Origin: a virus
Taxonomy: Duplodnaviria > Caudoviricetes
Length of the DNA: 64,000 bases
IMG/VR virus record: IMGVR_UViG_3300012987_000009
Span: 1,690-65,689 of that record
Strand: one strand, 5' to 3'
Below are positions 3,554 to 59,932 of this stretch, piece after piece (position 1 is the first letter of the stretch; every line of letters starts with the position of its first letter). The position numbers were made by a program, and so were the translations under genes. The notes under the pieces were generated by a model. The model was given only the letters and a program-made list of their open reading frames with translations. It did no database searches and was not told the DNA's origin.

Positions 3554-3907
3554 TCATTTTTTATTAGGTTGATTATTTCTTTTAACTTTTGAACAACCAT
3601 ATATGCTATACTCGTCGCCAATCATTAAATACCTCCATGTTCTTCTGCCGAATATCCATTTTCTTTTTGATCTATATACTAAATGATGACCTGTACATAC
3701 ATCATTATTTGTTATGCAATAACCATTTATGCTATGAGCAAAAGACGGCGGGATATAAGATATTAACAATATAGACGGTATTGTGTCTATATTATTAATC
3801 ATTGTAACCGAGTCGCGAATGGCTGGCTTGTAGAACGATGACTGCGCATTGCATGTGGTTGAAAGTACAGCAATAAGAACTACGATCAATATTAGTGCTT
3901 GTTTCAT
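3554..3907 (-). CDS. secreted protein (Sec signal peptide)
   Basis: MKQALILIVVLIAVLSTTCNA|Q. Confidence 0.7.
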   Translation of the reverse strand: MKQALILIVVLIAVLSTTCNAQSSFYKPAIRDSVTMINNIDTIPSILLISYIPPSFAHSINGYCITNNDVCTGHHLVYRSKRKWIFGRRTWRYLMIGDEYSIYGCSKVKRNNQPNKK

Positions 3908-16448: not shown

Positions 16449-16454
16449 AAAATA

Positions 16455-17446: not shown

Positions 17447-17447
17447 A

Positions 17448-23676: not shown

Positions 23677-23680
23677 TTTT

Positions 23681-24037
23681 ATGAATGAACAAGAATACAA
23701 CGAAGAAATTAAAAAGGCCGCTTGGCCAAATATACAAGATGGCCAAATAAAATATAAAGCCTTTAAGGCGGTAGATGGCCCAAAAGCAACAGGAACATAC
23801 GTTTGGATAATAAGAGATGAAACTAAGGCAGAGCAGAGCGGTCTGTTAATCCCTGGCACTGGTCGCGAAAAGCCCCACACAGGCACCATTCACTCCTTTG
23901 GAGATAAGGTGACCGATGAGGATATAAGAACAAGAACACGGGCCATCTTTCATAAAGGGATAGGCCAAGAGATTGAATACGGGAATAAATTGTATCTGGT
24001 TTTGCAGGAACATGAAATAATCGGAACCGATGATTAA
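23681..24037 (+). CDS. groES: co-chaperonin GroES
   Basis: SGLLIP mobile loop, EKPHTGTI, EIEYGNKLYLVLQEHEIIG. Confidence 0.8.
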   Translation: MNEQEYNEEIKKAAWPNIQDGQIKYKAFKAVDGPKATGTYVWIIRDETKAEQSGLLIPGTGREKPHTGTIHSFGDKVTDEDIRTRTRAIFHKGIGQEIEYGNKLYLVLQEHEIIGTDD

Positions 24038-27767: not shown

Positions 27768-28067
27768 ATGACACTAGAAGAAAAAGTAGCTCTCTATGAG
27801 CAGAATGGCGCAGCTAAATTGTTTTATAGTCTTAATCGAAAAATGAATGAGATGGCTGATCTTATGAATAAGACAAAGCTATCTGATATATCATTGGATG
27901 ATCCGAAGGATAAAACATTTGAACGTTTGAAGGTTATTTGGAATGATGCAGCTAGTATAGCTATAGCTGTAAAGGCACTCGGAGACTCTGCCGGAGTAAC
28001 AGGTGATGAAAAGAAGGACGTAGAGAAAAAACCATTCAATGACAGATTAGCAATGGATCGTAATTAA
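27768..28067 (+). CDS. putative terminase small subunit
   Basis: 99-aa helical ORF coupled to terL; position only. Confidence 0.45.
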   Translation: MTLEEKVALYEQNGAAKLFYSLNRKMNEMADLMNKTKLSDISLDDPKDKTFERLKVIWNDAASIAIAVKALGDSAGVTGDEKKDVEKKPFNDRLAMDRN

Positions 28068-36257: not shown

Positions 36258-39200
36258 ATGGAGAATAAGGTACAGATAAAGCAGCTGGCCGGGATGCTCA
36301 ACCTGGACGACCCATTAGAGGCGGTGGCTCCTACATCCCATGTAGGAGCTAGGAACATTTACTTTACTGGCACCCCTCCAAACAGAAAGGCGAATGTGGT
36401 GCAGGGGGTATTACCTGTTAGTAATTCGTTATTGCCTAATACCGGAGTAAATAAAACTATTTTTAAAAAATACGACCAGGTAAACAAAAGGATATATTTT
36501 GGGAATTACAATTCATTAGGCAAGCATGGCATTTATTCTTTTGATACTATTGCACAGACATTCTCAAGATTGATTGAGGTGGGGGTTAATGCATCCGGTG
36601 ATCCTTTGGCGTTTACTGCCGAATCGATATATAATACTGACATAATATATGGCGATAGTACTCAAGGGGACATTTTGTATTTTACGGACTCACTCAACAG
36701 GCCGACGAAGATAAATATTAACCGGGCGCTTTCTGGTGGATATGGAACCATACAAAGATCTTATTTGGATGTGGCGAAGGAGCCGGCTGATATGATCATA
36801 TATGCTACCTATGAAAATGATCCAGCAAATACTGTTAATAGTCTTCGAAAGAAGTTGTTTAGATTTAAGATAAGGTGGGTGTTTGATGACTTGGATAAGT
36901 CCATAACCAGTAGTCAGAGCGCAATGCCTTTGCCATTTAACGCATTTGATCAGACTGTAGATGCAGACCCTACAAAAAATTGCCGAATAGCACTGGTGTA
37001 TCAGACTGGCCCCTCAAATGTCAAAAAAGTAGAAATATATGCAGCCAATTCGGATGGGAACCAAATGAGTGATTTCTATCTTATTGAGTCTATAGACAAG
37101 GCCACACAGGGAATTTCAAGCAATGATATAGCTACCTATTTGTTTTACAATGACAAAGCATATACAACATTAAATACAACAGAAAGTAACCAACTGCTTG
37201 ATTATGTACCTCAGCAAGCGATTGCCCAAACAACACTTAATGGGAATGTAATAGCTTATGCAAATATAACAGAGGGATATCCAAACCTAACTAATTTCTC
37301 GGCCAGCGCGATTTCATCCAGTGCTGTTCCTTATTATTATGGGGATTACTATAGCCAGCTGGTCGCATATAAAGGCACCAGCTCTATACATATAGTAGTT
37401 AGAGCTTCAATAGTTTTGCCAGGTAATAATTACAATGTTTATTTTTCAGATAGCTCAAGTATATCATATACGGCTATATTGGGTGATGATGCATCCTCTG
37501 TTATAGAGGGACTTCGGGTTAGTGCCATAGCTAATGGATTTATTATTGATAGCAGTTCTGCTAATGATTTATATATATCAAAGACATCAGTTGATGTTTC
37601 GTACTGGAACGTAACAAATAGTTCGTATTCGGTTAATGCTTTATTGTATACATCGTTTAATGCATACGACTGGAATAGTAAATATGGATTCGGTTTAATA
37701 TATTTTGACCAAAAGGGGAGGACAAATGGTGTTGTATATACCAATGGGTTTTCTGTGCAAACAAATTCGTATACTGAATCAAATCCGACAGGGGATATAA
37801 CTAAATTCAACGCAAGTATTTATCATCAACCGCCAGATTGGGCCTATTACTGGCAATGGGTTAGAACTAAGAATCTAAATAAAGCCCATTTTGTGCAATG
37901 GATTACAGATAGAACATATAAGGATTTAAGTGCGGTATCCGGAAAGATAAAATATGCATATCTGAGTATTGAGTCTCTTAGGGTATTTGTGGTTGAAAAC
38001 CCAAGCAGTCCGCTATCATATTCATTTACATCGGGGGATAGGGTTCGGTTTTTTAAGAGGTATGACCAAGATGGTAATACTGCTAATCTTTATGGGAATA
38101 CAAAGGATTATGAAATAATTGGATCATTTATAAACCCAACTATAAATGGTGTTGTAAGAGATGGGCAATTTGTAAAAATAATACTCCCTGATACGGATGG
38201 TTCATTTGATTTTGGGTCAGGATTTGATAATTATTTCATTGAATTATATACACCGGCGCAACCAGTAGCTAATGCCCTAAATATGTATTATGAATTTGGG
38301 GAGCGATATTCAATTTTAGCGCCTACATTAAACTCGAGAGCCCATCAAGGCCAATTACAGAATCAAGATATAGGTGCTGGCACCCCGGCTACCTTTGAGT
38401 TTTTAAAAGGCGATGATTATGTAAGACTAAGGGCTATTCAAACAGGAAACGTATATACATGGAATGTACCGCAAAGCTCTGCTACTGGGTTTAGATTTTT
38501 AATCCCTTTGAATTTTGTAAATTCAACATACACTGATTCCAATGTGATCCCACATTCAGTTCCTTTATCTGGGATTGGAAATGTTTTTGATACACATACT
38601 GATTCAAGGTGGCTTATTCAGGTAGTATCAACCCTGACATTATTTAAGATAGGCGGCGTGTTGTCTATTAACTTCCCAACTGCTAAAAGCGGTGATACGT
38701 GGACTATATTTGCACCAAATAAATCGGGAGATAATCACATACTAGTTCCTCCTTTTGATGCTTCCAATGCCGGGACATACACATTCCCTATTACAACATT
38801 AGAGGTAAATGGTGAAGTAACAGATACAATTTCGCTTGAAAATGATAATTTATTTCTAATAGCCCAATCTGTAAATAATAACAACGATAGACAGGTTATA
38901 TTCATGGCATCAACGTTTACACTAACAGTTGATAAAATAATTAATCAGCGTTGTATTGATCCTAATTTTTCTGATTATTATCCAAGTGCGGTAAATTCAA
39001 ATGGGAGGGCCTGGGTTTTTGATGAGAATGCAAATAAAATAACTTACCCAACCCAGATCAGATGGTCATTACCGTATCAGCAGGATACACAAATAAATAT
39101 GACTAGTAGATTTTATCCTGAAAATTTTGATACATTAGATAGGAGTAATGGCCCGATTCAAGCTATGAGGTCAAATATTGGGGTATTAACTTATTTTCAA

Positions 39201-40148
39201 GATAGAAGATGTGGCTGGACACGCATTTATGGTAAATACATTACAGATTCGGAGGCGACCGGGCAACTCGCTACTACAGATTCTATAATAGCAGCAAATA
39301 ATACCAGTTATTATGATGGCAATTTCGGGGTGGGCAACCAGGCAACATCCATAGTACAAAGCGGATATGTTTATTATTTTGTTGATCCGGTTCGCAGAAA
39401 AATATTAAGGCTAAGTAGAGATGGGATAACAGACTTATCAGAAACGTATAAAGTACAAACATGGGCTAGTCAAAATATACCTAAGTACCAAAATCCGGGG
39501 ACGTATAGGTTCGGTGGTATGCAAAAAATACTTGGTGCATTTAATATTCGACAGGATAATATGGGCGAATATCTTTTATTGGCGCAAGGCACAACGACTG
39601 TAAGTGGGGAAACATTGTCGTTCGAAGAGAAATACAATATGTTTACATCCCCTATAGATATTGATTGCGATGCTATTGTTTGTGCTGAGGACGTTTTGTA
39701 TTGCTTTAGGAATGGAGTATTATATAAACAAGGGGGCGTGAACGTGTCCGCTGTTTTTTTCGGCACTCAATATTCGGCAAATATTAAATTGGTATTTAAT
39801 GAGCAAATTGCAATAAAGAAAATATTCAATGCGACTGGTCATATGGCTAATGCTACATGGGTATCCGATACGAGAGGGGATGTGATAACGAATCATATTA
39901 ATCCACAGACGTTTTTAGGCCAGGAAAGCCTAATAATGAGTCAGGATTATGATATTAGCGAGAATCCGAAACGGTATGCAGCAATAAACAAAGACATGAA
40001 TAGTATGACTGATGGAACTTTGGCATTATGGGAAGGGGATTATATGACAGGGGAGTATATGGTTGTTAATTATAAGTATATAGCAAATGCCCCATCGTTT
40101 TTTTATGCTCCATTTTTAACATGGCAAAGTGACAATAGAAACCCATGA
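36258..40148 (+). CDS. tail stabilisation/muzzle protein (P22 gp10-like position)
   Basis: 1296 aa beta-rich; LTYFQ...YYFVDPVRRKILRLSRDGITDLS propeller-like C-half. Confidence 0.7.
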   Translation: MENKVQIKQLAGMLNLDDPLEAVAPTSHVGARNIYFTGTPPNRKANVVQGVLPVSNSLLPNTGVNKTIFKKYDQVNKRIYFGNYNSLGKHGIYSFDTIAQTFSRLIEVGVNASGDPLAFTAESIYNTDIIYGDSTQGDILYFTDSLNRPTKININRALSGGYGTIQRSYLDVAKEPADMIIYATYENDPANTVNSLRKKLFRFKIRWVFDDLDKSITSSQSAMPLPFNAFDQTVDADPTKNCRIALVYQTGPSNVKKVEIYAANSDGNQMSDFYLIESIDKATQGISSNDIATYLFYNDKAYTTLNTTESNQLLDYVPQQAIAQTTLNGNVIAYANITEGYPNLTNFSASAISSSAVPYYYGDYYSQLVAYKGTSSIHIVVRASIVLPGNNYNVYFSDSSSISYTAILGDDASSVIEGLRVSAIANGFIIDSSSANDLYISKTSVDVSYWNVTNSSYSVNALLYTSFNAYDWNSKYGFGLIYFDQKGRTNGVVYTNGFSVQTNSYTESNPTGDITKFNASIYHQPPDWAYYWQWVRTKNLNKAHFVQWITDRTYKDLSAVSGKIKYAYLSIESLRVFVVENPSSPLSYSFTSGDRVRFFKRYDQDGNTANLYGNTKDYEIIGSFINPTINGVVRDGQFVKIILPDTDGSFDFGSGFDNYFIELYTPAQPVANALNMYYEFGERYSILAPTLNSRAHQGQLQNQDIGAGTPATFEFLKGDDYVRLRAIQTGNVYTWNVPQSSATGFRFLIPLNFVNSTYTDSNVIPHSVPLSGIGNVFDTHTDSRWLIQVVSTLTLFKIGGVLSINFPTAKSGDTWTIFAPNKSGDNHILVPPFDASNAGTYTFPITTLEVNGEVTDTISLENDNLFLIAQSVNNNNDRQVIFMASTFTLTVDKIINQRCIDPNFSDYYPSAVNSNGRAWVFDENANKITYPTQIRWSLPYQQDTQINMTSRFYPENFDTLDRSNGPIQAMRSNIGVLTYFQDRRCGWTRIYGKYITDSEATGQLATTDSIIAANNTSYYDGNFGVGNQATSIVQSGYVYYFVDPVRRKILRLSRDGITDLSETYKVQTWASQNIPKYQNPGTYRFGGMQKILGAFNIRQDNMGEYLLLAQGTTTVSGETLSFEEKYNMFTSPIDIDCDAIVCAEDVLYCFRNGVLYKQGGVNVSAVFFGTQYSANIKLVFNEQIAIKKIFNATGHMANATWVSDTRGDVITNHINPQTFLGQESLIMSQDYDISENPKRYAAINKDMNSMTDGTLALWEGDYMTGEYMVVNYKYIANAPSFFYAPFLTWQSDNRNP

Positions 40149-41244: not shown

Positions 41245-42797
41245 TGGCCGAACAGCGCATACTGCCACCGTATGGTGACATATTTATCGTTAACACTCCT
41301 TCTTTAGACAGGACTGCGCAGCAACTTTATGTTGCCCAGCAGCAGCGGCAACTGCGTCAGCAGCAGGAGAATCAGGAGCTGGATAAAATGCTTCAGAAGG
41401 ACTTTGCTAATATTAGATCTGTAGATACGCCAGATGTTGTAGACTCATATACTAGATATAAGCAGTTGAAAAAGAATCTCCTTTTTAATAAGGATTTACA
41501 ACGTGATCCAATGCTTTATAATAAAGCACAGCAGGCGGCTAATGAGGCATATTCTGAAATGAACCAAAGGATTAATCAAAGTAAGGAGATAAAGGACATG
41601 ACTAAAACGATGACAACTGATCGGTTTAAGAACCCTGATGCTTATGCGGATGATTATGGCCAGAGAGTGATGGCCCTAAATAGTACGCCAATATCCGGAT
41701 TGCATCAATATCCAGATTTAGTCAATTGGGATAACTATCGTTATCAAGGGTCAAATACCAACTTCAACGATATTGTGTCAAAGGTTTATGGTCAGCCAAG
41801 AAAAATAGTTGGTAAAGAGGAGGCGTTGGATAAACAAGGGATACAGTTCCGGGCTCCCGTATACGAATACGGAACACCACCTGCCCAAGTGTATGAGGGG
41901 CTGGTCAATTCTTTGGATCATAAAGCGGAAAGGGATGCTGCGTATAAATGGAAGCAATTGACACCAGATGTAGTACAGGGCATTGAGCAACAGTATAATT
42001 CAATACCACAGGCAAAATGGGAGCAAATGGGGTTGGCGGTACCGCAGAAAATAGATATACGCGGAGGGAGCGACGCGGAAAAATACATGCGATTACTAGC
42101 TATGCAAAATGCAATAAACACTAACCCAAGACTTGTTAACTACGAGAATAGGACTTCTGAGAAAGCAAAGATGGATTTGCAGTATGATAGAGATTTAAAA
42201 ATGCAGGCATTAAAACATGCAAACGCAAAAGACTTGATAAAGTTCAAGAAAGATATTGATCCAAATGATCAAGAGCTTAATGATATGTGGGTTACGGAAT
42301 ATGTAAGTAAACTTAAAAATGAGGCATATCAAAGAGGGGTTTATCCATATAAATACGGGAATAGTTCCGCTGTCCAGGAGTATAATATACCTGTAGATCC
42401 GGTTTTAGGTAAGGCGTTAAGCGTTGGAGGTGTTGAGCCAGATGCTGTTCGGGTAGACAAGGACGGTAAATTCAGACGTATTTTTTATAAAAGATATGAG
42501 AAGGGGGATGAAATACCAGAAGGGAAAGCTGTAGGTGATATAAAAAGCAGTGGGCCTAATGCTGTGGTAGATGAAGTATTAGGGAGAGCCCAATTAACCC
42601 AAGATCAACTTGAGTTGGCATTAGGTAAAAAAGCGCTCACCGGGAAGCAGCTGAATAAACAAATGGTCAATACTGTTGGGGGGGCTGGTAAAAAATATTC
42701 TATTAACGGGAAATCATACTCTAAGAAACAACTAAACGATATGGGGTATGATGACAACGAAATTAATGAAGCAATAAACGCAGGCATAATAAAGTAA
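41244..42797 (+). CDS. DNA ejection (internal virion) protein
   Basis: 517 aa, Q-rich N-terminal coiled coil; position. Confidence 0.6.
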   Translation: MAEQRILPPYGDIFIVNTPSLDRTAQQLYVAQQQRQLRQQQENQELDKMLQKDFANIRSVDTPDVVDSYTRYKQLKKNLLFNKDLQRDPMLYNKAQQAANEAYSEMNQRINQSKEIKDMTKTMTTDRFKNPDAYADDYGQRVMALNSTPISGLHQYPDLVNWDNYRYQGSNTNFNDIVSKVYGQPRKIVGKEEALDKQGIQFRAPVYEYGTPPAQVYEGLVNSLDHKAERDAAYKWKQLTPDVVQGIEQQYNSIPQAKWEQMGLAVPQKIDIRGGSDAEKYMRLLAMQNAINTNPRLVNYENRTSEKAKMDLQYDRDLKMQALKHANAKDLIKFKKDIDPNDQELNDMWVTEYVSKLKNEAYQRGVYPYKYGNSSAVQEYNIPVDPVLGKALSVGGVEPDAVRVDKDGKFRRIFYKRYEKGDEIPEGKAVGDIKSSGPNAVVDEVLGRAQLTQDQLELALGKKALTGKQLNKQMVNTVGGAGKKYSINGKSYSKKQLNDMGYDDNEINEAINAGIIK

Positions 42798-45700
42798 TGG
42801 CTGAAGAAATTATATATGATCAAGTAGATGGAGGCGGCGACCCTGACCCGCTAGGGCTGCGTCGTCAATTAAAGCAGGTAAAGAAGCCTACACAAGCCGC
42901 CGACCCATTAGGGTTGCGGTCGCAAATGCGTACAGCAAATGTGCAGCAGCCTGCGTTTCAAGTTCAAGTTGCCCAACCAACATTTAGGGCTACACAACAA
43001 ACCAGCGAACTTCGACCAACTGGGCCTAGTGAGCCTATAAGTATCAAAAAGGAAGAAATAGGGTACATTCCAGATAATCGCACAATTGAAGTTGAAAAGA
43101 TGAGGGGCAAGGCTCAGGAGGCACATAAAAAGATACGCGATGAGTTGTTACTGAACGATGATCAATATGAGAAAAAATTAAGAGAGTTGCGCAGGGATAA
43201 CTATACAGCTGATGATTTGATTCAGGAATACAAGGCAAACGGGTGGCCATTGCCCATCCAGTCTGAAATGCCCAAGTTATTGCAAAGGGCAAAACAGCGT
43301 CAATACGAGAAGCCGATTACGCCCGAAGACATTTCGGATATTAAGACCGGGACTGTATTGGATGAGAAGAATGCCAGGTCGTTCTTAAAGACATTGAATA
43401 AGGCAGAAGCAAATGCAAATTCTTTTGTTATTGATAAATTCAATGAAATATCTAATGATCCTGATGCCCTTGAGAGAATACCAAAAATAAAAAATATTGA
43501 AAAAGAAATAAAAGCAGGCCGCGTTGTTTATGATCCAGAAAAAGGACAAGCGTTTAAACCTGTAGGTGTGATAGGTTCTGCAATTGAGGCCGTCAAACAA
43601 AAAAATCAACTATATGCAGATCGCGATTTTCTTAAAAATACCGAAAATGATGCTGCGATTCTGTCTGAATATAAAGCCCGGAAAAAAGATCAATTAGATG
43701 AGCCTATCCCGGTGCCCAAAGGGAAGTTGTCAGAAATAATTGGTGGCATGGCTGGAACTCCCTGGCAGATATATGCAGCCGGGGCTCTTGGTAGTCTTGG
43801 TGGGCCACAGGCTGGTATTGCAGCTGCAACAATAGTTGGCGGTCGGGAAATGTCCAAATTAGAGTACCCAGCTACTTTTTGGCGAACCATGGATGAGCTG
43901 ATAAGTCAGGGCGTTCCCGAATTTGAATCTGTACACAAGGCTAGGCAACAAGCAGATCAGGCTGCTGAGGTTGGTGCCATTACGGGAGGCGCAATGGGTC
44001 TTGTTGGCGCTAGGATGGGGGCAGCGGCTTTGCCTAAAGTAAATTTATCTCAAGGATTTCGTCAAGCCGCTTTCAATGTATTAAAGCAAAATGGATATGA
44101 GCTTGGCAAAGCTGGATTAGAAGGACTTGCTACAGGAGGGGTAGGCGTTGCTGGGGAAATATATAAAAATAAACTAGCTCAATCAGCGGGAATAAAAAGA
44201 GATATTGATGAAGGTACAAAGCAAGTGTTTGAGCAGAATCTATTAACTACAGTTGCATTGGCTGGTGCCATTAAACTATTTAAAGGAGTTGCCCCAAAGA
44301 ATGCTCGTCAATTAATGCATGGTTTGTCAAAGTTGCCAGATGAGCAAATAGGGGAAATGCTTTCTGAGCGTGTACAATCGGGTGATATAACACAAAAGGC
44401 GGCAGATGATACACAGCAGCGAATTAATGAATATAGAGGGTTAGACAAGTTAATACCTGAAGATGTATCTGAGGAAGCTAGGTTTAAAATTCAAGATAAA
44501 ATAAAAAAGAGAAATGACTTAGACGCTACTCTGGAAACAACAGACAAGGCTTATCACACTGAAATAAAAGAAAAAATAAAAGCATTAGATGAAGAAATCG
44601 TTTCATTGACCAAAGAAAATAAGCAACCAGTTGAAAAAATCCCTAGTGGATTGTCTAAAGAGCAGGAAAAAGAAGCCATAGAAGTAGCTAATGAATGGAT
44701 ACAAGAGGGCATACTTCCTCCTTTGTATGAGGGAATGGTTAAGCAAGACCCGATCGGGTTTTGGAAAATGATTGCACAGCAGGCTCAAAATATGGACGAA
44801 AATTGGAGGCCGTTGGGTAATGAAATAAATGAGCAGGCAATTAGAGATCAGTTTGGCGATACCGTTGTTGATTATGCGAAGGAATTATTTCCTGCGCCCC
44901 AGACAGAAGTACCGAAGTCTGTTAGTGTTATTCAGCCAGGACAAATAAATAGCCCAGAAATAATAGGTAATGATAATATTTATATTGGAGATTTAATAGA
45001 TAAGGATGTGTCGTATAAAGGACAGAAAGGTACGCTTTATCAAGATGGGCAAACTGTAATTTTTAAAGTAAAAGGTGCTAATAGGGAATATGAAATAGGT
45101 AATATTGAAGAGGTTAAAAATAGTCCAATAAACAAATACGGGATTGAACATGAAGCTTCTGTTGTAAGTATAAATAATGATGGGGAGATAGTTATTAGGG
45201 GTAACTCTTACAAGAATAATTATTCTGATCCATTTATGGCTATTAATAGAGATGCGGATGGGAATGTGATAAGTGTGAGTCTTGAAACTAAAGACGGGCA
45301 AAAGAGAACATTTAGGGGTAATATAGCAGAAGATATTGCATACAATATTCATCTAAAGGAGATAAATAAAAACAATGCAACAAAATCAGAGTTCGAAGAG
45401 TTCATTAATTCAAATGAGCCCACCAGGAAGCAGGTTGAAAATGGAAGACTTTCAGAAATTGACCAAGAAGGAGCAATTAAAAATAATGCAGAAGTTCAAA
45501 GAAGCAAAATTGAGCCTGAAACCATAAAACCAAAAGAAGATGCCATTCAAAAGCGAAGCGCAGCGCCGATTATTGTGGATGAAGCGACCGGACATAGCCA
45601 AGAGGTGGTCGGAGGAATACCCGAATCAGGGGAAGTTGCCATACCACAAGAAGAAGGACAACGACCACCCCAAGAAGAAGGTATTACTCCGGGTGAAGAA

Positions 45701-48169
45701 GGGCGAGTAGGCGAACCATCAATGACAGGCATAACTCACAGACAGATGGATATTCTAGCTGAAGAACTTGGGTTGCCTACATATGAAAAATCGCCAGAGC
45801 GTGTATCTGAATGGGATCAACAAGCTGCTAAAAAGTTGCAACAACCAGAAGCGCTTGATAATTTATTTACTAAGCTTCGTAATGGGGAATTGCCAGATCA
45901 TGTAGAAACTAGGATGATGCTTCAGTATATGGGTGATATTATGGCTAAAATAGAGCGCGATCCATATAATCGAGCATTACAGGATCAATTGCTACGCACA
46001 AAGGATTTATTTAATATAGCTGGCCGATTGCAGGGTAAGGGGCTGGCTGCTAGAAAGGGGCAGATACCTGTTGAAGAAACATTGCCTGATTTCATTATAA
46101 GAGACAGGGAAGTGAATAAAGCCCCATTAACAGACGAGCAGATAGCAAAATCTAAAGAAGAGTTTGAGGAAATTAAAAAGGCGAAGGATGACTATGAACA
46201 AAAAGTAGCCAAGCTTGAGGCTGAAAATGCAAGGTTGAAAGCTGAAAAAATAATCAAAGAACAAGCAAAGAAAACCACAAAACAAACAAAAGATTATTCA
46301 TCAGAAAGAAAACAGATAGTTTCTGACATAAGAACGAAGTTAAGAAAGGCAAGAGGGGAAACTAGTATTGTTGCAGTTCCTTATGCAAAGGAGCTTATTG
46401 CTATTGCGCCGGATGTGGTCAAACTTGCTAAGACATATATTGATCAAGGAGTAGCTGAATTGCCTGAATTAGTTAAAAGCATTAAAGATGCATTGGCTGA
46501 AGATATGCCTCATCTAACCGAAGTGGATGTGCATAATATAATTGCGGGGGAGTACAATGAGAAAAAGCCAACAAGAAGTCAATTGGCGCAACAATTATAT
46601 GATTTAAGAAGAGAGGCTAAGTTAATAAATGAGTTGGATGATCTGCAAAATGGTAAAACCCCCGTGGCTAAGGACAAGCAGTTGCAGCGGAATAGAAAGA
46701 TAGAGGATTTAAAAGGCCAGATAAAAGAGCTGCGTGATGAGCTTGGGATTACTAACGTAAACAAATTGTCAGCTTTAAAGTCAAGGTATAAAAAACAAAT
46801 TGCTGATATTGAGAATAAAATAGCAAGCAAGGATTATGGGCCAGATGTGAAACCTGAGCCGTTAAAACTAGACGAAGAAGCAATTGAGCTGAAAGATAAA
46901 ATGATCAAGGCTAAAGCTGAACGCGAAGCTAGGTTGGCTCAGATGGAATACGAGCAAATGTCTGGGAGCAAAAGGGCTCTTGATCTGGCAAATCAGTCAT
47001 TGGATGCCGTGAGGACTATTCAGACAAATCCGGACTTGTCATTTTTTGGAAGACAGGGGATAAAATATTTTATGACGCATCCCGTGCAAGGGCCAAAGCT
47101 GTTTTGGGAGTCAGTAAAGCAGGCGTTTTCGCAAAGTAGATATGACAGATGGTTGTACGATATTCACAACTCTAAGGCGTGGAAGCTGATCGAAGAAACC
47201 GGGTTGGCAGTATTAGACCCGAATACCTTGCATGCCGCACAAAGGGAAGAACAATGGAGGTCACAATTAATCCATAAGATACCAGGTGCGGGTCAGCTTG
47301 CCAAGGCAAGTGAGAGGGCGTTTACATCCGCAGCTAATATGGCCCGGGTGGATTGGTTTATGGAAGGAGTTAGTATTTTAGAAAAACAAGGTAAAACATG
47401 GGAAAATTCAGCCAATGAGTATAAGGCATGGGCAAGTGCGGTTAATAATATGACTGGTCGTGGTGGCTTGGGTAAATTTGAGCCTGTTGTTGGCCAGCTT
47501 GCTATCCCGTTTTGGTCACCTAGATTAATCGCCTCTAATGTGAATTTATTTTTAAACCCGGTTTATTATGCGAAAATGCCAAAAACATCACGCTTAATGC
47601 TGATTAAAAACATGGCACAGTATGTTGGAACCGGGTTAGCATTTTTAGGGTTGGCAAAAACACTCGGAGCAGATGTTGAGTTAGATCCAAGAAGCAGTGA
47701 TTTTGGAAAAATAAAAGTAGGCAATACTAGATATGATGTATGGGGTGGCGCGTCACAGTACATCAGAGTGTTGACGCAGATATTTAAAGGACAACGCAAA
47801 ACTGGGAATGAAATATCAGAATTGAATACACGATCAAAAGTCATGACTGGTGCAAATTTAATTAGAACTAAATTATCACCGATCATTGGTTTTGGCGTCG
47901 ATGCTTTCCTTGGAGAAAATGTGGTTGGAGAGAAGGTAGAATGGAAGGACGCATATAGATTACTGATCCCAATGTTATACAACGATATAAAAGACGCAGC
48001 CAAAGATGGAAAAGGTGGGCCAGAAACAGCTGCAATTGCCGGATTATTATCATTCCTTGGTATTGGGGCGCAGACATATGGTGGCAAAAAAGATTCCGGG
48101 GCGTCTACCACAAGATCAGTTAACCGAAGCCAAACAAGAACTAAATCTAAAAAAATAAAAAGAATTTAA
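42797..48169 (+). CDS. large ejection/polyvalent-type virion protein
   Basis: 1790 aa, coiled coils, Gly/Ala hydrophobic segments, C-terminal DPRSSDFGKIKVGNTRYDVWGG block. Confidence 0.65.
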   Translation: MAEEIIYDQVDGGGDPDPLGLRRQLKQVKKPTQAADPLGLRSQMRTANVQQPAFQVQVAQPTFRATQQTSELRPTGPSEPISIKKEEIGYIPDNRTIEVEKMRGKAQEAHKKIRDELLLNDDQYEKKLRELRRDNYTADDLIQEYKANGWPLPIQSEMPKLLQRAKQRQYEKPITPEDISDIKTGTVLDEKNARSFLKTLNKAEANANSFVIDKFNEISNDPDALERIPKIKNIEKEIKAGRVVYDPEKGQAFKPVGVIGSAIEAVKQKNQLYADRDFLKNTENDAAILSEYKARKKDQLDEPIPVPKGKLSEIIGGMAGTPWQIYAAGALGSLGGPQAGIAAATIVGGREMSKLEYPATFWRTMDELISQGVPEFESVHKARQQADQAAEVGAITGGAMGLVGARMGAAALPKVNLSQGFRQAAFNVLKQNGYELGKAGLEGLATGGVGVAGEIYKNKLAQSAGIKRDIDEGTKQVFEQNLLTTVALAGAIKLFKGVAPKNARQLMHGLSKLPDEQIGEMLSERVQSGDITQKAADDTQQRINEYRGLDKLIPEDVSEEARFKIQDKIKKRNDLDATLETTDKAYHTEIKEKIKALDEEIVSLTKENKQPVEKIPSGLSKEQEKEAIEVANEWIQEGILPPLYEGMVKQDPIGFWKMIAQQAQNMDENWRPLGNEINEQAIRDQFGDTVVDYAKELFPAPQTEVPKSVSVIQPGQINSPEIIGNDNIYIGDLIDKDVSYKGQKGTLYQDGQTVIFKVKGANREYEIGNIEEVKNSPINKYGIEHEASVVSINNDGEIVIRGNSYKNNYSDPFMAINRDADGNVISVSLETKDGQKRTFRGNIAEDIAYNIHLKEINKNNATKSEFEEFINSNEPTRKQVENGRLSEIDQEGAIKNNAEVQRSKIEPETIKPKEDAIQKRSAAPIIVDEATGHSQEVVGGIPESGEVAIPQEEGQRPPQEEGITPGEEGRVGEPSMTGITHRQMDILAEELGLPTYEKSPERVSEWDQQAAKKLQQPEALDNLFTKLRNGELPDHVETRMMLQYMGDIMAKIERDPYNRALQDQLLRTKDLFNIAGRLQGKGLAARKGQIPVEETLPDFIIRDREVNKAPLTDEQIAKSKEEFEEIKKAKDDYEQKVAKLEAENARLKAEKIIKEQAKKTTKQTKDYSSERKQIVSDIRTKLRKARGETSIVAVPYAKELIAIAPDVVKLAKTYIDQGVAELPELVKSIKDALAEDMPHLTEVDVHNIIAGEYNEKKPTRSQLAQQLYDLRREAKLINELDDLQNGKTPVAKDKQLQRNRKIEDLKGQIKELRDELGITNVNKLSALKSRYKKQIADIENKIASKDYGPDVKPEPLKLDEEAIELKDKMIKAKAEREARLAQMEYEQMSGSKRALDLANQSLDAVRTIQTNPDLSFFGRQGIKYFMTHPVQGPKLFWESVKQAFSQSRYDRWLYDIHNSKAWKLIEETGLAVLDPNTLHAAQREEQWRSQLIHKIPGAGQLAKASERAFTSAANMARVDWFMEGVSILEKQGKTWENSANEYKAWASAVNNMTGRGGLGKFEPVVGQLAIPFWSPRLIASNVNLFLNPVYYAKMPKTSRLMLIKNMAQYVGTGLAFLGLAKTLGADVELDPRSSDFGKIKVGNTRYDVWGGASQYIRVLTQIFKGQRKTGNEISELNTRSKVMTGANLIRTKLSPIIGFGVDAFLGENVVGEKVEWKDAYRLLIPMLYNDIKDAAKDGKGGPETAAIAGLLSFLGIGAQTYGGKKDSGASTTRSVNRSQTRTKSKKIKRI

Positions 48170-49821: not shown

Positions 49822-52800
49822 ATGAAGTATATAGTTTATATATTCTTGTTTTTACTGATGGGCATGACTGTAAGGGCTCAATTGCCTAGCAGTACATTCC
49901 CGTCTAGGGTATTCAACGGGAATACAAAGGCGCAATGGATAATATTAGACAGCCCTGCTGTTAATCCAATACTGGATACGTTTAATGCCAGGTATCCGGG
50001 AACGCAATTAGTAAGGATTCAAGGTGGAGATACTGCGTTCTGGTTTGGCGCTGGAGGTCATTTGTGGTTCAGGAGCTTATTAAGTCGGGATACTGTATCG
50101 TTAAGTAATAGAATTAACCTAAAACTAAACATAACTGATACTGCTAATAAATGGTGGGGTATTGGTAAACGGTGGGTAGATACGGTGTATCGTGTGAATG
50201 ATTCAACTGTAGGCTATACTATAAATGGGTCACCTTATACATTTGAGATAAAGGGCGGCGCTCAAGGCGGTGGCGGGGGAACTGGCACCGTAACGAGCGT
50301 TGGGTTATCAATGCCTTCTGCATTCTCAGTCACGCCGTCTACTATTACATCTAGCGGCACATTTAATGTTTCTGGAGCAGGCACATCTGCTCAATATATT
50401 AGAGGCAATGGGACGCTTGCGACTACTGACACTGGTATGATTCCGAATTTTTATGTAAAAGCGCGATCATTGTTTTCTGGCACATCTCCCATAACATATA
50501 ATTCAACGACAGGGTTATTGGGGGTGTTGCGTGCAAATACTAGTGGGCAATTAGGGGTGGCTTCATTTAACAATAGTGATTTCGTTGACAATGGAGCGGG
50601 GTTGATTTCACTTCGTAATTCAACTGGAGGAGCTGGGGTGGATACCATATTAAGAATACCAGGGGTAGACAGTATTTATTTTACAATAAGTGGAGTTCAG
50701 TATGCAATTAAAGATAGTTCTGGCATGGTAGTATATGCTAGTAATGGGTTGTCAAAAAATGCAGACACTGTTCAGCTGGGGCAAACAGTTGGCGCAGTGG
50801 GTAATCCTGCTGCGTTGTCAAGTAGTAGGGAGATCCCGTTGAATGGATTTAATACCGTATTTACTGGAACTGGGGGGCTCGCCATTGGGACATCTACTGT
50901 TGGCAACCGGAAATTAAATATATCTGCTACATCTACAACTCAAGGGGCTAATGTTACTACTGTGGATGGCACTGGGATAAACGTGGTGGCATCCGGAACT
51001 GGGAATGCAATGTTCGGTCAAGCGGGCGGTACGGGTACTGGGGTGACAGGTAGTAATTCAGGTAGTTCTGGGTATGGTTTAGTGGGGGTGTCTTCAAGTA
51101 ATAGTGCAATACCATTTAAGGCAAATAATTTCAGCACTCTTACAAATTCAGCGACTCCTGTAGTTGCAGAATTTGTAAGGAATGTTACAGGGATACCAGC
51201 GGATGGGGTGGGTCTTACTGTTATGTTTCGCGGCCAGACAACTACCACTACTGATGTGGAAATGGGGCAAATAAGAAGCTATTTTAGTACTGCATTGCAT
51301 GGTAGCCGGTCATCTGCCTTTGAATTTCATCTGGTAAATAATGCGGTGTCAGCTCGAAAGGCATTCCTTGCATCAACAGGGCAATGGACTTGGGATGGTT
51401 ATCCCGGCTTGACGGCACAAATAGATACGACTACATATAAGCCAGTCGCTATTGATGGTTCTGGTAATGTTGTGAAAATGGCTGGATGGGCAGGTAGCGG
51501 CGGTGGTGGTGGCGCTATATTGAATAATATAGGAACAGGGGGCGCTTGGGCGGCTACTCCTTCCGGTAATATAAAAAGAGCGGCCAACAGCAACACAATT
51601 ACATGGGATAGTACAAGTACCGCAAATTCATTAACGGCAAAAGTAGACACATCATATATAGCAACGCGCTCCATTTGCCAGTGGCCAAATGAACGGAGGC
51701 TTGATACATTTTATAAGAAAAATAATTGGATAAATGGCAATGATTTTACTATACACGGGGCGGCATTATTGAGTTCGAATGGTAACTTCTTGGATCTTTC
51801 AGGCGGCGATGGGACATATGGTAGTAACTACATTACATTCAGCAATGTAACCATGCTGTCGAAATGGAAGATGGTTCTGTTAATTAAACTAACTGGGGCA
51901 TTAGTTTCTGGGGGTGGCTTGGCTGCTGGGTTAAAATATGTGAACTCTAACGCACAATATGATATACAAGGGAGTTTTGCATTTAACACTACAGGGTCAA
52001 CGCCGATCTATATAGCTACTACTAGAGGAGGGGGAACCGTATATCAAACTAGTGGGGGCTCAATGTCGTTTAGCCAAAATGATGTTATAAAGTTAGAGTT
52101 TGAATTTAATGATAGCTCATTTACAGTTTCAGAAACAAATATAACAACAGCAGCAAGTCCCGTGTCTACTACATATAGTTGGGCGAATCCTACTGTTGCT
52201 GCCGGGCAAATACCCAACACATGTAGTTTTGCGATATTCCCTATTAAGGGGGCTCAACAGATTCAATCAATTACTTTAAGCTCGGCTGAAACGCAATTTG
52301 CTTCTGTGGCTATGATCGGAGATAGCAAAGATCAGTTGGGGTTTGCTAGTAGCTTCTCATCTAGAATAGGGAATGAAGTAAATTCATCCATGCCAACGAC
52401 TATTACAAGGGCTGGAGAGGGAGATGGGGTTACACAAACGATGGCCGGGCTTCCTGAGATAAAACTGCTTTCACCCAGAATTGCCTTGTTAAACATTGGG
52501 TCAAATAGTATCCGACAAGGCATGAATGTGTATCAAGTTTTTTCTGCGTATGACAGTATTGTAAAGTCTATCGCATCAACAGGGATTCAGGTGTATCATA
52601 TGGTAATGCCTGAGGATACAGTAGATAATCCAACCAGTGCAGTAGGAATGAGTTTATTTAAACAGATGGTGCAAAGCACATATGGGGCGTTTTATATGAA
52701 CAAAATATGGGATACCCTTGCGGATAATAATAACAGATTAAAGGCTGCGTTTGACTCTGGGGATGGCGTGCATTTGAATCAGGCTGGTATAGATGCCACT

Positions 52801-54222
52801 GTGGTGGCCATATTGAGTTCAAATAAATTAACGGTATGCCCCTCGCGAGTGAGAGATGATTATTTTATAGCGGGTACATTAACAAATTCAAGTACGTCTA
52901 CAGGCATAGCCATAGGCGGAACTGATAATTACATTTTAAAGAAGTCTGGCGGTAATACAGCCAATAGCCTGTTGTATGATGCCGGGACGGGGGTTGGGTT
53001 GGGAACTACCACTCCGATAAACAAATTAGAAATAACAGGCAACGATTTTACAAATAGTATAGTGAAATTTGGTAGTGCTGAAATTCAAAGTGCGGAAGAT
53101 TGTAATTCTTTTGTGTCTAATAATGGACATTTTAACGGAACTAACTGGCGGTACGCTACAAATGGCGGGGCTTCTATATATCAATTATATAGAGATAGCT
53201 TGGTTATATACCTTCTTCCTGCTGGCACCGCTGGCGGCACTATTAATCAAAGCCTTTATAAAAAGATAGAAATAGGGCCACGGGAATTTAGATCAAAAAT
53301 CCCTATAAAAACATTAGACAGTATTACATTTTTCAATTTAACAGCTCCTCCTTCTACGTATAACATTTTGGTGCATGGATTAACGGATAGTCTAGTATAT
53401 CAAGTGCCTGCTTCCTTGTTTGGTGGAATATCGAGTCTAAATGCGCTGACCGCCTCTACGCAGACATTTGCGACTGGCACAAGCGGGAGTGATTTTAATA
53501 TTAATTCGTCTACCTCAACACATACATTTAATATCCCATCAGCCTCTACATCGAATAGAGGGTTAGTCACCACAGCGGGACAGACATTTGGCGGCCAAAA
53601 AACATTTAATGATGGGATTGTTGCTACATCTGGTGTTAATCCAAGGGTGACTATAAATGGGAATGTAAGCACAACAATAGGGCCATCTACTTATGGAGAT
53701 GGCTTGTTGATTGATTTTATAACACACACTAATACTGGCGCTGCTACAACAATATCAGATAATGAGAATTTTAATTTCATTGCAAATCCTACATTAACTT
53801 CTCCGAATGCCATATCGTATACAGGGGATGTAGCTACGGTTAGATTTGTTGGCGCTCCAGTAGCCGCAGGCAGCACGACCATATCTCATCCTTGGAACAT
53901 TTTGGCAAATGACGTTAACTACTTTGCTGGGGTAGCAATGTCATTGAATGAGCAAACAGGGAGTGTTACGCTATCAAATGCATCTGGGATAAACATTTAT
54001 ACAGGGACAGGCGGTAGTACTTGGACGTTGCCTGCACTTGCCACACATCCTGGCAAGTTCATTTTTATAAAAAACGCAGGAAGTGGCAATCTTACGGTTC
54101 AAAGAGCGGGCTCCGATAATATATATGAAACCAGCTCGGTAACGAGCATCACCATAGCAGCGGGAGCTTCCAGAATGTTTGCAGCGGGGAGTGCGTTCTG
54201 GTATGTATGTACGTTCAATTAA
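49822..54222 (+). CDS. tail fibre/spike-like protein with Sec signal peptide and SGNH esterase domain
   Basis: MKYIVYIFLFLLMGMTVRA|Q; GTGTVTSVGLSMP fibre motif; IGDS...NIGSN...DGVH; C-terminal TWTLPA...KFIFIKNAGSGNLTV tip. Confidence 0.75.
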   Translation: MKYIVYIFLFLLMGMTVRAQLPSSTFPSRVFNGNTKAQWIILDSPAVNPILDTFNARYPGTQLVRIQGGDTAFWFGAGGHLWFRSLLSRDTVSLSNRINLKLNITDTANKWWGIGKRWVDTVYRVNDSTVGYTINGSPYTFEIKGGAQGGGGGTGTVTSVGLSMPSAFSVTPSTITSSGTFNVSGAGTSAQYIRGNGTLATTDTGMIPNFYVKARSLFSGTSPITYNSTTGLLGVLRANTSGQLGVASFNNSDFVDNGAGLISLRNSTGGAGVDTILRIPGVDSIYFTISGVQYAIKDSSGMVVYASNGLSKNADTVQLGQTVGAVGNPAALSSSREIPLNGFNTVFTGTGGLAIGTSTVGNRKLNISATSTTQGANVTTVDGTGINVVASGTGNAMFGQAGGTGTGVTGSNSGSSGYGLVGVSSSNSAIPFKANNFSTLTNSATPVVAEFVRNVTGIPADGVGLTVMFRGQTTTTTDVEMGQIRSYFSTALHGSRSSAFEFHLVNNAVSARKAFLASTGQWTWDGYPGLTAQIDTTTYKPVAIDGSGNVVKMAGWAGSGGGGGAILNNIGTGGAWAATPSGNIKRAANSNTITWDSTSTANSLTAKVDTSYIATRSICQWPNERRLDTFYKKNNWINGNDFTIHGAALLSSNGNFLDLSGGDGTYGSNYITFSNVTMLSKWKMVLLIKLTGALVSGGGLAAGLKYVNSNAQYDIQGSFAFNTTGSTPIYIATTRGGGTVYQTSGGSMSFSQNDVIKLEFEFNDSSFTVSETNITTAASPVSTTYSWANPTVAAGQIPNTCSFAIFPIKGAQQIQSITLSSAETQFASVAMIGDSKDQLGFASSFSSRIGNEVNSSMPTTITRAGEGDGVTQTMAGLPEIKLLSPRIALLNIGSNSIRQGMNVYQVFSAYDSIVKSIASTGIQVYHMVMPEDTVDNPTSAVGMSLFKQMVQSTYGAFYMNKIWDTLADNNNRLKAAFDSGDGVHLNQAGIDATVVAILSSNKLTVCPSRVRDDYFIAGTLTNSSTSTGIAIGGTDNYILKKSGGNTANSLLYDAGTGVGLGTTTPINKLEITGNDFTNSIVKFGSAEIQSAEDCNSFVSNNGHFNGTNWRYATNGGASIYQLYRDSLVIYLLPAGTAGGTINQSLYKKIEIGPREFRSKIPIKTLDSITFFNLTAPPSTYNILVHGLTDSLVYQVPASLFGGISSLNALTASTQTFATGTSGSDFNINSSTSTHTFNIPSASTSNRGLVTTAGQTFGGQKTFNDGIVATSGVNPRVTINGNVSTTIGPSTYGDGLLIDFITHTNTGAATTISDNENFNFIANPTLTSPNAISYTGDVATVRFVGAPVAAGSTTISHPWNILANDVNYFAGVAMSLNEQTGSVTLSNASGINIYTGTGGSTWTLPALATHPGKFIFIKNAGSGNLTVQRAGSDNIYETSSVTSITIAAGASRMFAAGSAFWYVCTFN

Positions 54223-55663: not shown

Positions 55664-56434
55664 GTGATTACTATAAACAATTCAAATAAGCCGCCTAAAT
55701 GGATGGTATACGCGATGCTCATCCTGTTAATATTGCTTGCATATGCTCTTTACAGAGAGTGCAGGCAATCTTATGAGGGGGAAGTTAATCCCGTAGATAT
55801 CCAAGGGAGATTAAAGCGATTAATTAATGATAGCATCGAGAGCTCAAAGAAGCTGGCAGATAATTCCATTCAAAGAGAATTATTAGAGGGGCAGCTTGAA
55901 GTGGCTGATAATAAAAATACGGCCTATCTTGATTCGTTTGGTGTACTTAATAGTGTCCTAAATGGACTTAAAAAAAGATACAAGCCAGTTGTCGCGAGTG
56001 TAGACACAAATGTAACTACTGTTCCAAATGAGTATATAGAAGAGTGCTCTGGTTGTTTCGCGGCAATAGATAAGGCACAACAATTAGGGCTTAGGTATAA
56101 ATCAGAGTTGGATAATAAAGATAATCTAACCAAGTCTAAAATAAAAGTGTTGGACAATAGGATCAGTATTTTAGAAAACCAAAATGTTCAATTAGGTAAG
56201 AGCTATCGTAGTTTATTAGATAGCACCAATAAGGCGGTTCCTGCATTACGTAGAACATTGTTTGCTACCATAGGAGCAATGAGCATTAACCAGATTATGC
56301 CAAATGCTATTGGTGGCGGTTTTTTGTATGAGGACAAAAGACGCCGAATTTTTGGGGCTAAGTATTATGTTAGCAAGTATGGATCTATTTATCAGGGGGA
56401 AATTTCTTTGCCATTATCACTAAAATTTAAATAA
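55664..56434 (+). CDS. spanin-like protein candidate
   Basis: N-terminal TM, long coiled coil, C-terminal amphipathic beta strands. Confidence 0.5.
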   Translation: MITINNSNKPPKWMVYAMLILLILLAYALYRECRQSYEGEVNPVDIQGRLKRLINDSIESSKKLADNSIQRELLEGQLEVADNKNTAYLDSFGVLNSVLNGLKKRYKPVVASVDTNVTTVPNEYIEECSGCFAAIDKAQQLGLRYKSELDNKDNLTKSKIKVLDNRISILENQNVQLGKSYRSLLDSTNKAVPALRRTLFATIGAMSINQIMPNAIGGGFLYEDKRRRIFGAKYYVSKYGSIYQGEISLPLSLKFK

Positions 56435-56767: not shown

Positions 56768-57135
56768 ATTGTTTATATACATATATGTTCATGGCTTTAG
56801 CCGCTGTGTTTAAGGCGTGTGCGGATGCATTTGAAAATACACCAAACTTTGATGAGAGTGTATTTAAAAGGTTGAATAAGAAGTTTTGGTGTAAGGATGT
56901 GTCTTGGCAATATGCCAAGGTTTTGTCGATAAAAATACCGTTTTTTAAGAAACGGGTTGGGTCATATAAAATAGACAGTTGGCATATTAGTATTACACTT
57001 ATGGTTTGTATGATAGCAGCAGCTGTTGTTACATATGTCCCTTGTTATGAATGGTGGCTTCATTATCTGAGTATAGGGCTGATATGGAATGTGGTATTTG
57101 TTTTGTTCTATCATATAATATTTCAAGTTAAATGA
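56764..57135 (+). CDS. three-TM membrane protein
   Basis: Hydrophobic segments flanking FWCKDVSWQY; DSWH motif. Confidence 0.6.
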   Translation: MNCLYTYMFMALAAVFKACADAFENTPNFDESVFKRLNKKFWCKDVSWQYAKVLSIKIPFFKKRVGSYKIDSWHISITLMVCMIAAAVVTYVPCYEWWLHYLSIGLIWNVVFVLFYHIIFQVK

Positions 57136-57734
57136 CAATAACAGTAGACATATTAAAGGCTATTGCACCAGGGAGCAAGAAAACAAATTTCAAGCATTTG
57201 GGAGGATTGGCCCTTTGGATGAACCATTGGTTCCCAAAATTTGAAATTGACACAAAGGGGGAGTTGTGTCATATACTGGCGCAATTAGCCCATGAAAGTG
57301 ACTCATTCAATGCCATGGAGGAATATGCAAGCGGAAATGCGTATGAAGGGCGATTAGATTTAGGGAATAAGATTAAGGGGGATGGTGTTAGGTTCAAAGG
57401 GCGTGGCCCATTGCAAGTAACAGGCCGAAAAAACTACTATTTAATGGGAACGAAGGCAGGCGCTCCGTTAAAATTCATAAACAATCCTGAGCTTCTGGCG
57501 ACGCCAGAGTGGGGGGTATGGTCGGCGTGTATTTTTTGGACTGAAAAAGGGTTGCTCGATATATCAAATATGCCAGATGGGGCAAGAATACCATTAAAAA
57601 TAAAAACCGATAAGGGGTATGAATTAGTGCCGCTGGAACCCATAGTGTACATTAGTAGGCGAGTGAATGGTGGCGTCAATGGTTTGGCAGAAAGGATTAA
57701 GTTTTATGGCAGAGCTAAGGATATTATAAACTAG
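57132..57734 (+). CDS. endolysin, GH19 chitinase/lysozyme-like
   Basis: ILAQLAHES, EEYASG, DLGN...GDGVRFKGRGPLQVTGRKNY, RRVNGGVNGLAER. Confidence 0.9.
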   Translation: MTITVDILKAIAPGSKKTNFKHLGGLALWMNHWFPKFEIDTKGELCHILAQLAHESDSFNAMEEYASGNAYEGRLDLGNKIKGDGVRFKGRGPLQVTGRKNYYLMGTKAGAPLKFINNPELLATPEWGVWSACIFWTEKGLLDISNMPDGARIPLKIKTDKGYELVPLEPIVYISRRVNGGVNGLAERIKFYGRAKDIIN

Positions 57735-59587: not shown

Positions 59588-59932
59588 TTAAAGGTTAGTT
59601 TTAGCCCATGAACGTATTAATTCCCCATCGCCTTGTGATAAATAGATGACATAGTGTTTGTAGCGTCCATGCCTATCGGTTTTCCAGGTGCAGGTAAAGC
59701 GCTTAAACAATGTGCCATGAGACTTGAAAAGTTCATTGAATACGCCCTCGTTATCACAGTTTATTTTCGCCTCAGTCTTGGTATAGTTCATCGTTGTTTC
59801 ATCGGCCAGTAGGATGGTGTCTGCTGAGTTTACAACTGAAGGGCATTTGTCGCGTGTTTGGCTGTGAGCTTTTAAATAGAAGGCTCCCAATTGAGCGACA
59901 ATAAGAAAGGCGATAATTGCAATCTTTTTCAT
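59588..59932 (-). CDS. secreted protein (Sec signal peptide)
   Basis: MKKIAIIAFLIVAQLGAFYLKAHS|Q. Confidence 0.65.
   Translation of the reverse strand: MKKIAIIAFLIVAQLGAFYLKAHSQTRDKCPSVVNSADTILLADETTMNYTKTEAKINCDNEGVFNELFKSHGTLFKRFTCTWKTDRHGRYKHYVIYLSQGDGELIRSWAKTNL

Follow-up and report, generated by a model that had tools for sequence, protein, structure and literature searches.

A predicted Sec-exported, fibre-like protein of a tailed phage carries an excess of the Bacteroidota O-glycosylation motif

Introduction

The prevailing view is that in tailed phages every part of the virion is folded and put together in the cytoplasm. Examples of fibres and tailspikes with receptor-modifying enzyme modules are gp63.1 of phage G7C, an SGNH esterase tailspike, and the endosialidase tailspikes. 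Here, we describe P0001, a fibre-like protein of 1466 amino acids (aa) encoded in a 64-kb window (the whole stretch of DNA that was analysed, 64,000 nucleotides, positions 1,690 to 65,689 of IMG/VR record IMGVR_UViG_3300012987_000009) of a tailed-phage genome. The P0001 family resembles the enzyme-bearing tailspikes in its conserved N-terminal anchor, exchangeable C-terminal modules and position at the end of the tail module; tailspikes of the G7C gp63.1 and endosialidase types have no signal peptide and are folded in the cytoplasm, in contrast to what is predicted for P0001.

Mycobacteriophage virions are reportedly glycosylated (Freeman et al., 2023); in that case phage-encoded glycosyltransferases are reported to modify proteins of the capsid and tail tube within the cytoplasm. 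The case proposed here for P0001 would likewise place glycans on a virion protein of a tailed phage, but the route would be the periplasmic system of the host acting on an exported fibre. The O-glycosylation motif of the Bacteroidota is enriched above chance in the non-cytoplasmic proteins of the phylum, where it is generally near-fully occupied, and engineered motifs become glycosylated, while replacement of the Asp by Glu abolishes glycosylation in B. fragilis; the substrates described so far are cellular proteins, and the review in question mentions phages zero times (PMC12871550). P0001 resembles these substrates in its Sec-type leader, its enrichment in D-S/T-(L/I/V/T/A/S/M) and an order of preference at the third position that matches the one from glycoproteomics, and differs from them in being a fibre-like protein encoded by a virulent-looking tailed phage.

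Leaders that expose a glutamine after cleavage, the Q-rule of Bacteroidetes signal peptidase I (SPI) substrates, have been described (PMC5837995, PMC10653852). Phages of Porphyromonas gingivalis encode Q-rule leader proteins of unknown function that were read as modifiers of the host envelope (PMC10367356); like P0001 they have Bacteroidota-style leaders exposing Gln, but they do not resemble fibres, and their description included no analysis of sequons. The mosaic adhesive trimer (MAT) fibres of Bdellovibrio bacteriovorus are trimers resembling phage tail fibres, with a signal peptide, a conserved beta-rich domain immediately following the leader and variable tips, and they demonstrate that maturation of such fibres after Sec export is possible (PMC10769870). 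Unlike P0001, they belong to a predatory bacterium, which uses them as adhesins of the cell; no virion is involved, and the Bacteroidota O-glycosylation motif has not been reported in them. Literature searches for an exported or host-glycosylated fibre of a tailed phage found none.

A precedent for leader-bearing virion proteins is provided by Cellulophaga phage phi18:3 (Pachyviridae, NC_021794), a cultured podovirus of Bacteroidota to which the phage of the window is, at the sequence level, distantly related: the large terminase (TerL) matches at 26% identity (E 3e-45), and the portal, gp113 and gp114 match too. Its gp085, gp086 and gp087 (L103:2892-8584) are encoded by neighbouring genes that immediately precede the lysis genes, begin with MK-hydrophobic-(S/A)Q leaders and are annotated in the record as structural from tandem mass spectrometry of virions. 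In all three leaders the Gln lies before the predicted cleavage site. No comment on these leaders was found in the searchable literature.

Motif Excess and Leader of P0001

Exact counting of the strict motif, or sequon, defined as D-[ST]-[AILVMT], gave 16 occurrences in the 1466 aa of P0001, which contains 57 Asp and 25 D[ST] pairs. Residues 1-317 hold 14 Asp, of which 12 are followed by Ser or Thr, eight of them in strict motifs. An earlier reading made from the letters alone (the sequence-only reading) had given the 16 strict motifs, the 12 of 14 Asp and the eight strict motifs among them by hand, and these counts proved exact. In 20,000 shuffles of the whole protein, 5.4 +/- 2.2 strict motifs (p = 5e-5) and 13.0 D[ST] pairs (p = 2.5e-4) were expected; the excess is thus real, and it survived shuffling within blocks of 30, 50 or 100 residues, which keeps the local composition of this Gly/Thr/Ser-rich protein (p <= 2e-4). 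With residues 1-317 shuffled, 1.2 strict motifs and 3.0 D[ST] pairs were expected, and none of the shuffles reached either observed count, while residues 318-1466 alone gave a borderline result (8 strict versus 4.2, p = 0.05).

Five motifs served as controls, and none of them was enriched in P0001: [AILVMT][ST]D, E[ST][AILVMT], N[ST][AILVMT], D[AG][AILVMT] and D[ST][not AILVMT]. A motif at the DNA level was ruled out as the cause, because 12 different hexanucleotides encode the 25 D-[ST] pairs.

The gene and its parts are as follows:

49822..54222 (+), P0001 gene, 1466-aa fibre-like protein, directly 3' of the tail genes and ahead of a lysis cassette of membrane-protein and endolysin genes

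49822..49881 (+), predicted Sec/SPI-type leader, residues 1-20: MK, hydrophobic core, V-R-A, then Gln21; lipobox Cys absent

49882..50616 (+), conserved N-terminal domain, residues 21 to ~265, 50-80% identity, common to more than 100 cluster representatives; the part densest in sequons

52303..52791 (+), putative SGNH/GDSL-type esterase module, residues ~828-990, with blocks G833-D-S835, G893-S-N895 and D981-x-x-H984

53968..54219 (+), C-terminal module of ~85 aa, conserved family-wide (T-L-P...G...K-N-A-G...W), with no match to a type IX secretion system (T9SS) C-terminal domain

The hydrophobic leader is the true N-terminus of P0001, since a longer start is barred by a TAG that lies in frame 15 nt before the ATG. 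Its parts follow the Q-rule (K2, a core of ~13 hydrophobic residues, V18-R-A20 and Q21 at +1), it is kept at residue 1 across more than 100 cluster representatives, and nearly all homologous leaders end in (K/N/V/S)-(A/S/G)-Q. P0001 is therefore predicted to be a Sec/SPI substrate of the Bacteroidetes Q-rule type. Two other destinations were considered and rejected. A C-terminal sorting domain of T9SS cargo was not matched in Pfam or NCBIfam even at E <= 1, and a lipoprotein (signal peptidase II substrate) is not indicated, there being no lipobox and no Cys within residues 1-618. Because both the T9SS domain and the lipobox are missing, exported P0001 should remain periplasmic. Cysteine content and parity, considered as a second sign of export, were alike in leader-bearing and leaderless fibres.

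Association of the Motif with Export

P0001 was the only large open reading frame (ORF) of the 65.7-kb genome with an excess of strict motifs. The following ORFs of the window served as controls:

36258..40148 (+), leaderless 1296-aa virion protein with a crAss-muzzle-like C-terminus, related to phi18:3 gp114; negative control

42797..48169 (+), leaderless 1790-aa virion protein; negative control

55664..56434 (+), spanin-like signal-anchor protein with a long periplasmic coiled coil; positive control

3554..3907 (-), small ORF with a leader ending C-N-A, then Gln; second exported-type control

The 1296-aa protein, credited with about six strict motifs in the sequence-only reading, has exactly six (5.2 expected), and the 1790-aa protein has one (3.5 expected), with 0-3 in its counterparts in related phages (3.1-4.2 expected). 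The spanin-like protein carries two strict motifs where 0.5 were expected (1-5 versus 0.5-0.8 in its counterparts), and the small ORF two where 0.2 were expected. Across 12 related IMG/VR loci, the pooled observed/expected ratio was 180/64.3 = 2.80 for the fibres, 57/20.2 = 2.81 for the other ORFs with leader-like or transmembrane-like N-termini and 88/112.6 = 0.78 for all remaining ORFs; these other leader- or transmembrane-bearing ORFs thus show the same sequon excess as the fibres. A host baseline from loci of Bacteroidota metagenome-assembled genomes (MAGs) was uninformative, the loci having been chosen for fibre-like giant exported proteins (values 0 to 6.5x).

A comparison was then made of 44 non-redundant homologous fibres from several phage groups. 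Labels given by the automatic leader rule were wrong for four fibres with leaders, a frameshift fragment and an ORF cut at its 5' end, and these were corrected or dropped by hand. The 36 leader-bearing fibres, of about six N-terminal types, gave a pooled ratio of 520/194.9 = 2.67x (range 1.34-4.13), against 28/44.4 = 0.63x (range 0-1.15) for the eight leaderless fibres of about four N-terminal types; the two sets separated completely, with zero overlap. Among independent cluster representatives, 48/52 leader-bearing proteins reached at least 1.5x, and the clearly leaderless ones lay at 0-1.3x. The fibres of the cultured Flavobacterium Elemovirus, a relative with GroEL, are leaderless and show no sequon excess. 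In one phage with a leaderless fibre (L050), the neighbouring lipoprotein has four strict motifs where 0.3 were expected, so the host of that phage still imposes the sequon signature.

Because leader-bearing fibres and ORFs are enriched and leaderless ones lie at or below chance, the strict motif tracks Sec export. The claim of the sequence-only reading that the sequons independently support real export is borne out in that the excess follows the Sec-type leader both within genomes and across homologous fibres.

As a separate observation, the leaderless virion protein of ~1750-1940 aa found in the window and in L001-L011 totals, when summed by hand, ~14 strict motifs versus 40 expected, well under chance and under the other cytoplasmic ORFs.

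The P0001 Family and Its Host

More than 600 homologues of P0001 were found that have the leader and the first 260-320 residues in common and differ in their distal modules, which include SGNH, BNR sialidase, SASA, pectate lyase and LamG. They align over the first 17-22% (up to 45%) of P0001, and a query with the N-terminal domain alone matched 113 cluster representatives at E <= 1e-30, with alignments that begin at residue 1.

Over the first 320 aa of 119 homologues, 66% of Asp are followed by Ser or Thr (2.9x chance). The variable remainder shows hardly any enrichment of D[ST] (1.2x), but A/I/L/V/M/T make up 70% of the residues that follow the pair, the background being 41%. At this third position, L (2.5x), I (2.3x), V (1.8x) and T (1.5x) were preferred and G, P, F, D and E fell below 0.4x, with no comparable bias after E[ST] or N[ST] in the same homologues. 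The preference is common to all swapped C-terminal module types. The C-terminal signal, borderline in P0001 alone, is visible family-wide as a choice of L/I/V/T after D[ST].

Four columns of the N-terminal domain are kept as strict sequons in most of 118 homologues:

50089..50097 (+), D90-T-V, strict in 88%

50137..50145 (+), D106-T-A, strict in 88%

50179..50187 (+), D120-T-V, strict in 70%

50200..50208 (+), D127-S-T, strict in 85%

Two further columns, D43-S-P (94%) and D203-T-G (97%), are conserved as D[ST] yet rarely strict, and these pairs are therefore probably structural. The strict sequons of the N-terminal domain are spread over 49 columns, 33 of them occupied in <10% of sequences, with a mean of 6.9 per domain. 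The 12 of 14 Asp followed by Ser/Thr thus reflect ordinary conservation in part, and the rest looks like a maintained density of sequons. What the sequence-only reading proposed, namely selection for host glycosylation acting chiefly on the N-terminal part, stands insofar as the excess is real, sequon-specific and family-wide, and has to be reduced by the N-terminal D[ST] pairs that are unrelated to the sequon (D43-S-P and D203-T-G).

One unit within the N-terminal domain, D-T-x-S-L-S-N-R-I-N-L-K...D-T (window 50086-50150, residues 89-110), has a sequon at each end and is repeated as many as 27 times in giant proteins that bear a leader (P0155; L099:8765-15344). Similar giant proteins, 3-6x enriched in sequons, are encoded on Bacteroidota MAG contigs, some of them beside gliding-motility-like genes.

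The host phylum is taken to be Bacteroidota because all TerL matches in the phage collection (81/81) are phages of Flavobacterium, Cellulophaga or Maribacter, nearly all genome matches are freshwater Bacteroidota MAGs, and the leaders of the P0001 family obey the Q-rule (small residue, then Gln).

Evidence for a Fibre

P0001 lies between the tail and lysis genes and is the sole fibre-like gene of the genome. The gene order, in which genes for a 517-aa protein, the 1790-aa protein and three small tail-region proteins are followed by P0001 and then by the membrane proteins and endolysin, is the same around the gene in 12 related loci. In other phages, leaderless homologous fibres occupy the same gene position as the leader-bearing ones. 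Three relatives (L016, L069 and L012) have C-termini that match proteins annotated as tail fibres in cyanophages, pelagiphages, roseophages and others. Virion receptor-binding proteins follow the pattern seen in this family, a lineage-specific conserved N-terminus joined to exchangeable C-terminal modules, and the N-terminal domain is presumed to be the tail-attachment part.

All three SGNH blocks, I (GDS), III (GxN) and V (DxxH), are present in P0001 and in order, and the esterase is apparently intact. The PF13472 match to P0001 itself scored 24.1 bits, under the cut-off of 32.9; many homologues carry PF13472. The module is probably a receptor-modifying (deacetylating) enzyme.

A model of residues 1-345 built by AlphaFold on a 10-sequence alignment was unusable (predicted local distance difference test, pLDDT, 35). 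The ESM Atlas gave leads below 0.9 only, weakly fibre-like.

Discussion

It is highly probable that P0001 is a Sec-exported protein in which the host O-glycosylation motif has been under selection. That it is actually glycosylated is likely, given the near-full occupancy of such motifs and the glycosylation of engineered ones (PMC12871550). That the exported protein is also a fibre of the virion is somewhat favoured.

According to the model proposed here, the Bacteroidota-type leader would take the unfolded pre-protein through Sec into the periplasm, where signal peptidase I would cut after V-R-A and expose Gln21. The general O-glycosylation system of the host would then place glycan on the Ser or Thr of D-S/T-(L/I/V/T/A/M) at ~16 sites, densest in the N-terminal domain, and the glycosylated fibre would fold and trimerise in the periplasm. 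As the capsid and tail assemble in the cytoplasm, the fibre could not reach the particle before the inner membrane has been opened by the holin or the cell has lysed, and would dock on it then; a virion fibre joined after the holin has opened the inner membrane is, we infer, the most economical reading. The mature protein would be a receptor-binding fibre that attaches through its conserved N-terminal domain, continues in a variable shaft, carries an SGNH esterase whose substrate for deacetylation is probably a surface polysaccharide of the host, and ends in a conserved tip. The sequence-only reading suggested a glycan coat that could stabilise or camouflage the fibre; the glycans may confer resistance to proteases or allow the fibre to wear the host's own surface glycan. 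We lean towards this model as a whole, that is, an exported, host-glycosylated, late-docked receptor-binding tail fibre.

Several points weigh against it. We know of no mechanism by which a periplasmic fibre is joined to a cytoplasmic particle. Searches of Pfam, PHROGs, NCBIfam and the PDB with P0001 returned the sub-threshold SGNH match only and nothing naming a fibre, and a search of the phage collection (INPHARED) with the gene and the protein returned zero matches and no cultured member. An AlphaFold model of residues 1-270 from 58 sequences was poor (pLDDT 61, predicted template modelling score 0.23), and its weak Foldseek matches in BFVD to elongated, fibre-like phage proteins (TM < 0.2) were not used as evidence. 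The leader proteins of phi18:3 are sequon-poor (gp085, gp086 and gp087 have 1/3.6, 1/3.1 and 1/2.9 observed/expected, together 3 versus 9.6), so leader-bearing virion proteins need not be sequon-rich, and the N-terminal domain profile shows no homology to them beyond the leader. Leaders were assigned by visual inspection together with a crude rule, the output of which had to be corrected by hand. In the cluster-representative set, four leader-bearing relatives are unenriched and two enriched ones, with doubtful N-termini, have no obvious leader. The contrast between fibres with and without a leader is not phylogenetically independent, though it spans many unrelated N-terminal types.

The alternative that fares best, although we consider it unlikely, is that P0001 is exported and probably glycosylated but is not part of the virion, being a fibre-shaped enzyme of the periplasm or envelope that strips or modifies the receptor polysaccharide, with the host bound through another protein. 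Such an enzyme could block superinfection or keep progeny off debris. A Sec leader normally denotes a periplasmic or envelope destination, for which the missing route from periplasm to virion and the lack of direct homology between P0001 and a proven fibre also speak; P0001 has its esterase, and homologues have sialidase, SASA and pectate-lyase modules. The envelope-modifier reading of the P. gingivalis phage Q-rule proteins (PMC10367356) points the same way. Set against this, P0001 is the only fibre-like gene and sits at the usual fibre position, its conserved N-terminus with swapped C-terminal modules is typical of virion receptor-binding proteins, leaderless homologues stand at the same position in other phages, and leader-bearing proteins were detected in phi18:3 virions. 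An enzyme acting at the cell surface would also have neither a T9SS domain nor a lipobox with which to reach it.

It is improbable that P0001 is exported but that its motif excess was merely inherited, through module exchange with sequon-rich exported host proteins, the glycans having no role. The recurrence of the unit D-T-x-S-L-S-N-R-I-N...D-T in the giant, 3-6x enriched, leader-bearing proteins of Bacteroidota MAGs would fit such an origin, but leaderless fibres share modules with leader-bearing ones and yet lie at or below chance. Four sequon columns have been kept in more than 100 diverged homologues while 45 more turned over with the number per N-terminal domain staying near seven, and the third-position preference is the same in all swapped C-terminal module types.

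That the N-terminus is no export signal (for example, a buried assembly helix) and the D-S/T-hydrophobic excess a structural feature of the fold is very improbable: the conserved non-sequon pairs D43-S and D203-T-G, the positions of D90-T ahead of a predicted helix and of D127-S in a predicted hairpin turn of the low-confidence model, and the motif-poor leader proteins of phi18:3 would suit it, but reversed, Glu-, Asn- and non-hydrophobic variants of the motif are unenriched, the large beta-rich virion proteins that these phages make without a leader do not exceed chance, the excess extends to small, unrelated ORFs of the same genomes that encode leader proteins or lipoproteins, enrichment goes with the leader in six or more unrelated N-terminal types, and the leaders end in a small residue and then Gln, as in Bacteroidota SPI substrates.

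If the exported, glycosylated virion fibre is correct, it would represent a new step of assembly, in which a fibre passes through Sec and host periplasmic glycosylation and its joining is delayed until the holin fires. The phage would gain a new dependency on the host, whose genes for Sec, signal peptidase, glutaminyl cyclase and O-glycosylation would thereby become resistance loci of a new kind. Virions would carry the glycan signature of the previous host cell, a non-genetic, host-induced modification of their surface through which stability, adsorption or recognition could change in the next host. For annotation, leader-bearing fibre genes are easily mistaken for bacterial adhesins or morons, and for host prediction, a Q-rule leader with sequon excess would be a marker at the phylum level. 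The family is large, and leaders occur on several unrelated fibre types; tentatively, a large group of Bacteroidota tailed phages may build its receptor-binding fibres in the periplasm, decorate them with the species-specific O-glycan of the host and dock them after the holin breach.

Other Features of the Genome

The source contig is a single-contig tailed-phage genome of 65.7 kb, most of which is covered by the window. Other genes located in the window were:

25280-27766, portal

28067-30154, TerL

31641-33047, capsid-like protein

57132-57734, endolysin

within 15201-18470 and 22117-24575, methyltransferase (PF13489) and GT2 glycosyltransferase (PF00535) adjoining a phage GroEL (PF00118)

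GroES or GroEL is likewise present in the cultured relatives phi18:3 and Elemovirus. The spanin-like gene is kept downstream of the fibre in all related loci, and the leader of the relatives' proteins ends in R-G-C. Two small early-region ORFs, 3554-3907 (-) and 59588-59932 (-), have Q-rule-type leaders, the latter with counterparts in several related loci, and may encode exported host-envelope or exclusion proteins.

Two observations concern other contigs. A 79-kb contig binned as part of a gammaproteobacterial MAG (L080) has fibre-like ORFs with Bacteroidota-style leaders and is probably a phage contig put into the wrong genome bin. In one related phage contig (L008:10001-13797), a frameshift splits the fibre gene into a 319-aa ORF comprising the leader and N-terminal domain and a remainder of 960 aa.

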